DNA of 64,000 nt from a virus (Duplodnaviria; Heunggongvirae; Uroviricota; Caudoviricetes): the IMG/VR virus record IMGVR_UViG_2877962823_000010. The stretch is one strand, 5' to 3'. Made by a program: the position numbers. Of this stretch, positions 27,001-30,000 are shown piece by piece. Numbering within the stretch: the stretch's first letter is position 1; every line of letters begins with the position of its first letter.

Positions 27001-30000
27001 TACATGGTGACGAAGAACAGAGATGTGCTACTGAGAGAGGCGGCACGGCTTGACCAGTCGAGTTTCGTAGTTCAGCGGGCCAGACCAATGCTGAAAAGCC
27101 TGCGGGCAAGGCAATTCGAATTCTAAAACCAAAGGAGCTTCGGCTCCTTTTTTCATGCCTGAAGGAAAGGAAAATGGCAGATATCATCGACAACGCCGCT
27201 GAAATCGAAGAATTGCAGCGCAATCTCTCCCTGCAAAAATACAAATCCGATAGTAATGCCCCATCTGCTACTCATTGTTGCGAGTGTGGCGATCCGATAG
27301 ATGAGCGGCGACGCCTGGCTGTTCGTGGATGCAGAGCTTGCGCCAGTTGCCAGCAGGATATTGAACTTATCAACAAACAGAGAGGTGTGAAGTGAACATC
27401 AACACCACGATAACGATCGATACAGCCCTGAACACCGGCCTAGCGCTCCTTGGTTATTTCTACATCATGTTCTGCAGCGGACGATGGCTGTCACTGTTGT
27501 TCATGAAAAAATGGAATAAACGCCGTAAGCAGGAGCAACGCCAAAAGGCAATAGATGCATTTTTCGAAGCCTTCGGTATTGACGGCATGGAACCAGGGGA
27601 TCCAGCTCGCGCAATTAGCAGAGGGGGCGTAGTAATCCTTGTATACCGGAGTGAAGAGAAAAATGAGCAAGATTGACTATCAGGCACTGCGTGAAAAGGC
27701 AGAGAAAGCAACTAAAGGAAGCTACATCGTAGGGCATACATCTGTTAACCAGCACGGCAATTTAACAGGAGTTTTTGTTTGCCAAAAATGGAAAGGAGAA
27801 CCCGGTGGCGTGATTGCAGAATGTCATGTTAACTGCCTGGTTGAAACAGATGCTCAGGCTTATGCAACGCTGAATTCATAGCAGAGGCTAACCCGGCTAC
27901 CGTGCTGGAACTGCTGGATGAACGGGAAAGAAACCAGCAATACATCAAACGCCGCGACCAGGAGAACGAGGAGATTGCGCTTACGGTTGGGAAGCTGAGA
28001 GTTGAGCTGGGAGCAGCAGAGAACAACCTTATTGATAGTGAATGCCATGTTGCTGAACTGGAAGAAGCGCTACGCGATAAGCAGGCGTTACTTGAAGCAT
28101 CAGAGAAGCGCATAGCAGAACTGGAAGCCGAACTCGTAAGCCAAACTTACAAGTTGCCACACACGCAGTTTGAACAGATTGCTAACCTCTACGAAATGCA
28201 ATTTGATGACGGTCGCACTTGTGCCTTTCACACTGATGCGCAAAAGGCTGAGCAATGGCTTCAGGCGTGCGACGGAAACAGGGTTCAGGAATACGTTAAG
28301 CTGGAACGGTTGCAGAATGCGCTGTCTGGCAACTCTCCGGTAACTCCGGATGGTTGGATAAGTTGTAGTGAGCGAATGCCGGATACCAAAACAGCCGTTC
28401 TTGTTGCCGTGGAGTTTGACAGGAAAGGTGACTGGCGAATGAAGTGGGCGACTTACATCCCGGGGCATCCTGACGCTAATGATGGGTGGATAATTCCTGG
28501 TGCGTCGTGGAAACCGTCACACTGGATGCCGCTACCAGAACCGCCGCAGGAGGTGAACTGATGGAAAATGAAGGCGATAATATCATCACACTGGTGCAGC
28601 CAAAGCGCGATGAAGAGAAGCTGCTGAACATTACAGTAACTGGCAGAAAAAACTACACACAACAGAGCTGTAAGCATCGGGCCATTGAGGTTCATGAACA
28701 GGATCACGTTATCCTGTGCTTGCAGTGCGGATGTGTTGTGGACCCTTTTCAGTATGTTCTGCGGTGTGCGAACGATGGTGAGGCTGTGGTGAGAGAGATT
28801 AGACAGCTTCATAACAGACACGATCAGCTCCGAGAATCTGTTGCCAGCCTCGAGCGTGAAGAAAAGAACACCAAAGCACGGTTGCGGGCAGCAAGAACTG
28901 CAATACTGTATGCGGAAAATGACCTTAAAAATATTGAGCAGAAGGTGAATCAATGACCTGGCCTGAAGCATTCGCAAATGTAGGAACAGTAATGGCGGTG
29001 GTGCTGGTTGTGTATTCGATTTGTCGCTGGAGATAAAAACGGTTTGCGGGAAAAGGAGAGTTAAGTAGAATTGCTGCGGGTGCTTGAGGCTATCTGCCTC
29101 GGGCATGAACACCAACGGCAGATAGAGAAAAGCCCCAGTTAACATTACGCGTCCGGCAAGACGCTTAACATTAATCTGAGGCTCAATCCATGCTGAACAC
29201 ATGTAGGTTAGCCTCTTACGTGCCGAAAGGCAAGGAGAAGCAGGCTATGAAGCAGCAAAAGGCGATGTTAATCGCCCTGATCGTCATCTGTTTAACCGTC
29301 ATAGTGACGGCACTGGTAACGAGGAAAGACCTCTGCGAGGTGCGAATCCGAACCGGTCAGACGGAGGTCGCTGTCTTCGTAGACTACGAATCTGAGAAGT
29401 AAGAGACCAAGCGGGGGAGTAATCTCCCGCCACCTCTGATGTGTCAGGCATCCTCAACGCACCCGCGCTTTACCATACTGAAAATGCTGTTTGAATGTTC
29501 ATCTCTGAAAGAGGACTATGAATGAAAAAGGTATTGATTGCAGCACTTATTTCTGGTGTGTCTTTTGGCGCTTTTGCACAGCAGGGCGGTTTCCAAGGGC
29601 CTGAAGCAGAGCGTTCAACAGTAGCGCAGGCAAAAGAACTGAAGGATGATGCATGGGTTATCCTTGAAGGGAGCATCGTTAAAAAAGTGGGTGATGAACG
29701 TTATGAGTTTCGTGACAATAGCGGGACAATTGTCACGGATATCGATGACAGCATATGGGCCGGTCAGAATGTTTCTCCGAAAGACAAAGTAAGAATTGAG
29801 GGTGAAATTGATAAAGACCTGAGCAGTGTTGAAGTGGATGTAAAGGCACTGAAATTATTAAAGTAACCGTCCCAGCTTGCTAAGCCCGTCTTACTGACGG
29901 GTTTTCTGTTTGTTATCACAGTATTTTTCAACAAAACACCGAATCTTATCCGGTGCGCTGTAAAACCCCGTCCTTCAGGGCGTGGAGGATGTCAAATGGC

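Follow-up and report, generated by a model that had tools for sequence, protein, structure and literature searches.

Enterobacterial inner membranes contain a class of small single-pass proteins that includes KdpF, AcrZ, MgtS, PmrR, and CydX. Each is shorter than 50 residues and has a single hydrophobic helix flanked by short ends that are charged or aromatic; annotation often misses these proteins, and they usually act by binding a larger membrane protein. A gene with these characteristics is found in the IMG/VR virus record IMGVR_UViG_2877962823_000010 (Caudoviricetes), of which a stretch of 64,000 nucleotides (nt) was analyzed (the window). The gene is a 27-codon open reading frame (ORF), here termed the micro-ORF, whose predicted product is the peptide MTWPEAFANVGTVMAVVLVVYSICRWR. 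In contrast to members of the KdpF/AcrZ class, to which it has no sequence relationship, the micro-ORF is phage-borne, occurs in multiple copies per genome, and moves as a mobile module of about 100 nt. A first-pass annotation of the same DNA had joined it with the gene immediately upstream, which encodes a protein of 131 amino acids (aa), as a possible toxin/regulator or sensor/effector pair; this pairing is not supported by the distribution of either gene.

Two other groups of genes bear comparison. Type I toxins (Hok/Gef, TisB, Ibs, ShoB, and DinQ) are likewise small and hydrophobic, and in the window the micro-ORF adjoins a real hok/sok locus. Unlike type I toxins, however, the micro-ORF has no HOK_GEF match and neither an antisense RNA nor a folded leader of its own, and it is coupled to an upstream protein gene; unlike a toxin tied to hok, it lacks a neighboring hok in over half of the scorable loci. 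The accessory genes of the lambdoid ea/exo-xis and nin regions (Ea22, Ea8.5, orf60a-63, and the Nin proteins) share with it their neighborhoods, mosaic inheritance, ATGA-type packing, and dispensability, yet no named ea or nin gene corresponds to the micro-ORF, which is much shorter than the annotated ones. By its predicted properties, the micro-ORF defines a previously undescribed family within a known category, the small accessory membrane proteins of phages.

The first-pass annotation located these features correctly. The 131-aa ORF (28561-28956) and the micro-ORF (28953-29036) are both present, the micro-ORF start codon overlaps the upstream stop codon as ATGA at 28953-28956, and the hok/sok locus, described there as a hok-like toxin directly downstream, starts 42 nt beyond the micro-ORF. 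The product had also been called strongly hydrophobic: residues 6-24 (28968-29024) form a core with a mean Kyte-Doolittle value of 2.07, the classical threshold for a 19-residue window being 1.6, and the C-terminal end is basic and aromatic. This single hydrophobic segment is of membrane-spanning length, and its hydrophobicity is kept across all variants of the peptide. The peptides of relatives (e.g., MTWPEAFTTVGIAMAVALVVYSICRWG, MSWPDAIVTLGMVFAAAFVVYSICRWG, and MNWPEAFTAVGVAIAVAFILYSLFRWG) have the same length and pattern, consisting of an N-terminal M-x-W-P-E/D-A, a hydrophobic helix of about 19 residues with an invariant glycine, and a C-terminal C-R-W-G/R. Among the eight variants gathered without an ORF filter, M1, W3, P4, A6, G11, R25, and W26 are invariant. 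On inspection, a lipoprotein signal was dismissed, because Y-S-I-C does not form a lipobox. Production of the peptide as a frameshift extension of the upstream protein was also rejected; there is no slippery sequence, the junctions are of two unrelated types, and both a Shine-Dalgarno sequence (SD) and the ATG are conserved.

An ORF of this size is not unusual in itself: 80 ORFs of at least 20 aa lie within 5 kb, and 27 open codons alone are compatible with chance. The significance of the micro-ORF therefore comes solely from comparison with its relatives. One set of loci was retrieved from IMG/VR with an 84-nt degenerate pattern (more than 120 stretches) and combined with loci already known, giving 134 hits with 58 unique DNA sequences and 35 unique peptides. 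In this set the third codon positions vary most (entropies of 0.54, 0.39, and 0.95 for the three positions), and the pairwise ratio of nonsynonymous to synonymous substitution rates (dN/dS) is 0.36 in the micro-ORF frame compared with 1.18 and 1.75 in the other sense frames. An unbiased set was assembled from loci found through DNA similarity or through the 131-aa gene, with no ORF required; 44 of these loci carry the sequence, and their dN/dS is 0.315 in frame and 1.16 and 1.46 in the other sense frames. The 27-codon ORF is complete in 38 of the 44 and shortened by an in-frame two-codon deletion in three more, for a total of 41 intact copies. The three disrupted copies are those of vB_EcoS-689R5 (a 1-nt deletion), locus L219 (a frameshift), and POCJ13 (TGG changed to TAG). 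Replacements among the variants are conservative hydrophobic ones. Together, the dN/dS values, the intact loci, the invariant ATGA, and the conserved SD identify the micro-ORF as a predicted protein-coding gene under selection, and it very likely specifies a translated small membrane peptide.

Antisense coding was rejected as an account of this conservation. A 249-aa ORF on the minus strand at 28453-29202 (B39 in AP005153) spans the micro-ORF, the hok promoter region, and most of the 131-aa gene. Its frame contains stops in 41 of the 58 relatives of the micro-ORF block and has a dN/dS of 3.3, and B39 is very likely spurious. In the other open antisense frame, the conserved block contains no start codon.

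Translation signals are conserved together with the ORF. The base after the ATG is A in all 134 hits even though codon 2 encodes T, S, N, or I; because its first base is constant while the residue varies, the ATGA overlap itself is conserved. In the subgroup of peptides beginning MNW, the start reads ATGATGA and the first ATG overlaps the stop. These observations support the translational coupling to the upstream gene suggested by the first-pass annotation. An SD-like tetramer, within the closing codons of the preceding gene, lies before the micro-ORF ATG in all but one of 34 distinct upstream contexts; most relatives have GGAGGTGA or GGAGGA as the SD, and the window has AAGGTGA. When 28561-29070 was compared with phage records by distant blastn, the last ~100 nt (~28938-29037) had homologues of their own in many lambdoid phages without a 131-aa gene. 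Homology between contexts starts at the SD or the ATG (often exactly at the ATG) and stops at the stop codon, after which the bases vary with the downstream content. The inherited unit is thus the SD plus the ORF, and the comparison shows what appears to be a ~100-nt module recombining independently of its neighbors.

The micro-ORF is widespread. A tblastn search with the peptide returned 91 phage records, 90 of them matched over the full length, at 54-100% identity; phage lambda was not among the organism names listed for this search. At the DNA level (blastn), 1722 of 5426 complete E. coli genomes contain it in 3273 places, with up to seven copies per genome. The cryptic prophage CPS-53 (yfdQ-torI), the only K-12 region inspected, contains no copy. 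On these comparisons, the micro-ORF can be regarded with good confidence as a genuine small gene belonging to the lambdoid prophages of Escherichia and Shigella, present in about one-third of complete E. coli genomes. Copies also occur in records of less expected origin. Positions 2501-2951 of locus L005 (PP818812.1, Actinobacillus phage vB_Apl-pPE4) carry E. coli-type Ead/Ea22, micro-ORF, and hok regions that are ~90% identical to the window; the recorded host is Actinobacillus pleuropneumoniae, and either the host assignment or the assembly may be doubtful. Micro-ORFs accompanied by lambdoid ea-region genes are found in ON075799.1 (vB_EcoM_TH18), ON470617.2 (vB_EcoM-813R1), and KM190144/NC_025830 (Av-05), which are classed as large virulent or P1-like phages (Vequintavirinae, 134 kb; Punavirus, 100 kb; and Av-05, 121 kb). 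Chimeric assembly, prophage contamination, or real mosaicism could account for the lambdoid genes in these records.

Existing annotation largely omits the gene. The NCBI Prokaryotic Genome Annotation Pipeline (PGAP) left the interval empty in all three RefSeq genomes inspected, and the inspected phage records lack a micro-ORF annotation except for vB_EcoS-689R5, in which the frameshifted copy is called in another frame. No Pfam, NCBIfam, or PHROG family matched the 27-aa product at E≤1, and none was found in the PADLOC models. A collection of ~15 billion predicted proteins lacks the exact window peptide but includes sister variants of it, labeled, for example, hypothetical protein, bacteriophage protein, or prophage protein; the gene has thus occasionally been called but never characterized. 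Literature searches with the peptide sequence found no paper carrying it, and it was not found in the Pro-SMP finder supplements. Apparent fusions of the peptide to DUF551 proteins (90%-identity clusters P0097-P0135) were rejected, as the grouped DUF551 proteins of 121 aa and 185 aa lack the peptide sequence; the clustering seems to be an artefact of partial or mis-started entries that span the junction.

The genes on either side of the micro-ORF vary independently of it, and this variation bears on the possibility that the 131-aa protein and the peptide form a dedicated two-component unit (regulator and toxin, or sensor and effector), possibly together with hok. Such a unit would fit the ATGA overlap of the two genes, the adjoining type I toxin locus, and the presence of the micro-ORF behind two distinct clades of the 131-aa family (98-100% and ~59% identity). 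Yet co-inheritance was not found. Only nine of the 134 copies follow a 131-aa homologue; 62 follow a DUF551 gene and 38 a 114-aa gene that ends RNGLISVEDILR, has no Pfam match, and is unrelated to the DUF551 and 131-aa families. The remaining copies follow other genes or decayed remnants, or have MNW-type starts at which the script missed the upstream gene. Conversely, among 80 IMG/VR loci chosen solely for the 131-aa family, 35 have the micro-ORF (one of them frameshifted) and 45 do not, the latter comprising the 66-80% identity clades and a few others. In Enterobacter phage Tyrion a 75-aa gene replaces the micro-ORF behind the 131-aa homologue. The gene ends also point to module shuffling: 131-aa genes that precede the micro-ORF end (K/E)VNQ/R*, the codons of the DUF551 junction PEPPQEVNQ*, whereas homologues that lack it end EQG(V/I)KQ*, and the junction motif GGAGGTGAACTGATG recurs where the 131-aa gene begins (28548-28563). 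The simplest reading of the shared VNQ codons and of the junction motif at both ends is that a 131-aa cassette was inserted by recombination between DUF551 and the micro-ORF. Neither product matches a PADLOC or toxin-antitoxin family. A dedicated pair is consequently very unlikely, and the juxtaposition of the two genes is probably an accident of mosaic recombination.

A role for the micro-ORF as a second type I-style membrane toxin, or as a modulator of Hok, is suggested by its size and hydrophobicity, which resemble those of small type I toxins, and by the fixed distance of 211-212 nt to hok in 38 loci. This role is extremely unlikely, however. Among 126 scorable copies, hok lies within 700 nt downstream in 57 (~45%) and is absent in 69, eight more copies being too near a contig end; elsewhere the micro-ORF is followed by DUF4222-xis-int, by a toxin-antitoxin pair on the opposite strand, or by a large tail-side protein. 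Hok in turn occurs without the micro-ORF, as most of the 731 plasmid records, among the matches listed, match the hok portion of the query and not the micro-ORF. The peptide matches neither Pfam PF01848 nor the NCBIfam Hok models nor any other toxin family. An Rfam scan of 28400-29700 in E-value mode returned sok alone (RF01794, 29078-29252, 113.5 bits), with no RNA over or antisense to the micro-ORF, and the micro-ORF has no separate type I promoter or leader. The adjoining mok/hok ORF at 29190-29402 (hok itself, 29247-29402) matches Pfam HOK_GEF at 1.1e-22. On this distribution hok/sok is an independent module and not part of the micro-ORF unit, and the analysis gave no sign of a functional link between the micro-ORF and either hok or the 131-aa protein. 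Other prophages carry the micro-ORF-hok block in their nin region, where it sits between replication gene P and DUF968-rusA-Q, followed by ygiW in E. coli O145 RM9872 (locus L016, 2501-3429) and without ygiW in 2012C-4502 (locus L017, 2501-2950); the block thus moves between the early-left and early-right accessory regions. A third explanation would deny the peptide any function, the block being kept either as a recombination junction of lambdoid mosaics or as a short relay ORF that retains ribosomes on the early transcript and passes them on to the next gene. In this direction point the location of the block exactly at module boundaries with variable flanks, the frequency of ATGA overlaps in such operons, and the terminal TGGGGATAA, a potential SD for the gene that follows; in xis/int contexts this gene begins 4-8 nt past the stop, behind the GGGGA of the last codons. 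A junction or relay would not need a conserved amino acid sequence, however, whereas the third-position variation, a dN/dS of ~0.3, conservative changes, fixed length, and in-frame deletions indicate selection on the peptide. The block is also equally conserved where downstream coupling is lacking, as in the window, with its 42-nt gap to hok, and in ArgO145, where opposite-strand genes follow. A functionless peptide is accordingly judged improbable.

Several points weigh against the interpretation of the micro-ORF as a selected membrane protein gene. The retrieval pattern used in IMG/VR demanded the ORF, and intactness in that set is therefore by construction. The dN/dS values are pairwise and ignore phylogenetic non-independence. 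One antisense frame has a low dN/dS of 0.21; the frame shares third positions with the sense frame, the value is the artefact expected of such a complementary frame, and a start codon is missing from this frame within the conserved block. The gene is dispensable, since three of the 44 unbiased copies are disrupted and related phages lack it. In the supplements of a ribosome profiling (Ribo-seq) study of uninduced Sakai lysogens, the micro-ORF is absent from the novel small genes, although ORFs so short, or a repressed region, may be outside that study. Translation and membrane location are predictions, and the functional target proposed below is purely conjectural, drawn from analogy.

The interpretation favored here, and considered likely, is that the micro-ORF gene encodes a single-pass inner-membrane peptide and moves as its own module. 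It probably sits at the distal end of strings of early accessory genes, either in the ea/b region near xis-int-attP, as in the window, or in the nin region between P and Q, and its transcription would then accompany that of these operons when the phage infects or is induced. On reaching the end of the gene before it, ribosomes would reinitiate at the overlapping ATG, aided by the SD in that gene's last codons. The SD and ORF (~100 nt) would travel as one recombination module, and in 933W-type phages the 131-aa gene would have entered between the DUF551 gene and the micro-ORF at the junction motif. The peptide is predicted to enter the inner membrane and, following the positive-inside rule, to keep its basic C-terminus on the cytoplasmic side; within the membrane it may bind a host- or phage-encoded membrane protein through the transmembrane portion of that protein, or it may perturb the membrane itself, in a dispensable accessory function. 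More tentatively, it is possible that the peptide is a membrane effector that binds one particular inner-membrane protein of the host (a transporter, sensor kinase, protease, or phage-entry component) and affects superinfection exclusion, the lysis-lysogeny outcome, or host physiology on induction.

The 131-aa protein is a member of phrog_1621 (E=1.7e-59), a family of unknown function, and has no Pfam, NCBIfam, or PADLOC family; the first-pass annotation could not assign the pairing to a described family, and neither product of the locus belongs to one. Its 96 homologues in Enterobacterales (Escherichia, Shigella, Klebsiella, Salmonella, Citrobacter, Kosakonia, and Xenorhabdus are the named sources) are all called hypothetical. 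The Cys/His cluster noted in that annotation is real, and the C-terminal coiled coil noted there corresponds to a predicted long helix that is probably a coiled coil. Across 29 homologues, with identities as low as 40%, C37, H39, C53, and C56 do not vary, and the core of the helix, LRESVANLEREEKNAKARLR...AENDLKN, is nearly invariant. The AlphaFold2 model (mean predicted local distance difference test score, pLDDT, of 78) has a disordered N-terminus, a small beta-hairpin bearing the ligands (predicted strands at 42-45 and 50-53), and a single C-terminal helix at 62-130, with block pLDDT values of 82-96 for residues 61-130 and above 90 for 71-120. In the model, the four conserved ligands lie on two knuckles, as in a zinc ribbon, and the site is probably zinc-binding, as had been proposed.

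Four Cys/His ligands on a beta-hairpin knuckle and a long helix recall TFIIB-type zinc ribbons and DksA/TraR. The fold match to TFIIB-type ribbons is non-significant, however: the top Foldseek match in the PDB is a TFIIB N-terminal domain (E=0.48, probability 0.80, over 27 columns), a weak one. Fold searches of the PDB and BFVD gave no match at E≤0.001, and a PDB sequence search gave nothing meaningful. Pfam returned weak coiled-coil-type matches only, with no match to PF01258 (zf-dskA_traR), and the order of the 131-aa protein, ribbon then helix, is the reverse of that in DksA, in which the helix comes before the ribbon. In PADLOC there was no defense-system match, only coiled-coil noise to LmuB (E=0.004, 13.8 bits). 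The product is probably a zinc-ribbon coiled-coil dimer and a separate accessory protein. Records of VT2-Sakai and Stx1 phages start the gene at GTG 28486, for 156 aa. The extra N-terminal segment (28486-28560, ..TLDAATRTAAGGEL) is an alternative reading frame of the DUF551 C-terminus, and the 131-aa start is favored because all aligned homologues have a Met at or beside the residue encoded at 28561. The same TLDAATRTAAGGEL string precedes over-long micro-ORF calls in some GenBank entries.

The window is a Shiga-toxin (Stx) phage of the 933W/VT2-Sakai type. Within the region searched, 27800-29500, it matches 933W/VT2-Sakai (Sp5)-type Stx phages, as well as the Stx1 and Stx2 phages of strain Morioka, at 100% identity. 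The region lies just past int and attP on the circular phage map, and its equivalent in the Sakai chromosome is the distal end of prophage Sp5 (ECs_1244 to ECs_1251), where the micro-ORF start at window position 28953 corresponds to about 1305868 on the minus strand of NC_002695.2. Coordinates of the features are collected in Table 1. The Ead/Ea22-DUF551 gene looks like a single gene broken in two, the 219-aa ORF covering Ead_Ea22 profile positions 69-139 plus DUF551 and ending PLPEPPQEVN* with GGAGGTGAACTGATG. PGAP flags a frameshift in the equivalent gene of 2013C-3342, a strain that matches the window at 100% identity throughout the 116-nt micro-ORF segment. Directly after hok is a YgiW/YdeI-type (BOF) stress-tolerance OB-fold gene whose N-terminus resembles a signal peptide on inspection; it appears to be moron-like cargo of the Stx phage. 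About 550 nt past ygiW, a minus-strand ORF of 2806 aa (30417-38837), an LPD38/LPD5 domain protein by annotation of its relatives, is of a type typical of 933W-like short-tailed Stx phages.

Table 1. Features of the window around the micro-ORF.
Feature	Coordinates	Strand	Remarks
int	~24597-25931		by transfer from AP005153
att core	~25953-25959		by transfer from AP005153
AntB-type antirepressor	26497-27126	+	
TraR/DksA zinc finger gene	27174-27395	+	genuine family member of the same operon
DUF4752	27392-27676	+	
Split Ead/Ea22-DUF551 gene, first part, 80-aa ORF	27639-27881	+	Ead_Ea22 profile positions 1-56
Ead/Ea22 C-terminal part + DUF551, 219-aa ORF	27902-28561	+	Pfam DUF551 2.3e-21, Ead_Ea22 5.3e-13
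131-aa gene	28561-28956	+	ATG 28561, TGA 28954-28956; phrog_1621
Putative zinc-ribbon knuckle, C37-x-H39...C53-x-x-C56 codons	28669-28728	+	ligands invariant, 29 sequences
Long helix, residues 62-130, probably coiled coil	28744-28950	+	DSSP, AlphaFold2
SD-like AAGGTGA plus spacer	28942-28952	+	inside final codons of the 131-aa gene
27-codon micro-ORF	28953-29036	+	ATG 28953-28955, TAA 29034-29036; encodes MTWPEAFANVGTVMAVVLVVYSICRWR
hok/sok type I toxin-antitoxin locus	29078-29402	+	Rfam RF01794, Pfam HOK_GEF
YgiW-type OB-fold protein	29522-29866	+	

Genes that adjoin and are ATGA-coupled in the accessory regions of lambdoid phages need not form a functional pair. Should the peptide be made, the annotation of E. 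coli and of Stx phages omits a conserved membrane protein, and the very small membrane proteins would gain one more member, spreading among prophages as a 100-nt SD-plus-ORF module. For Shiga-toxin phages, it would be a simple candidate accessory function.

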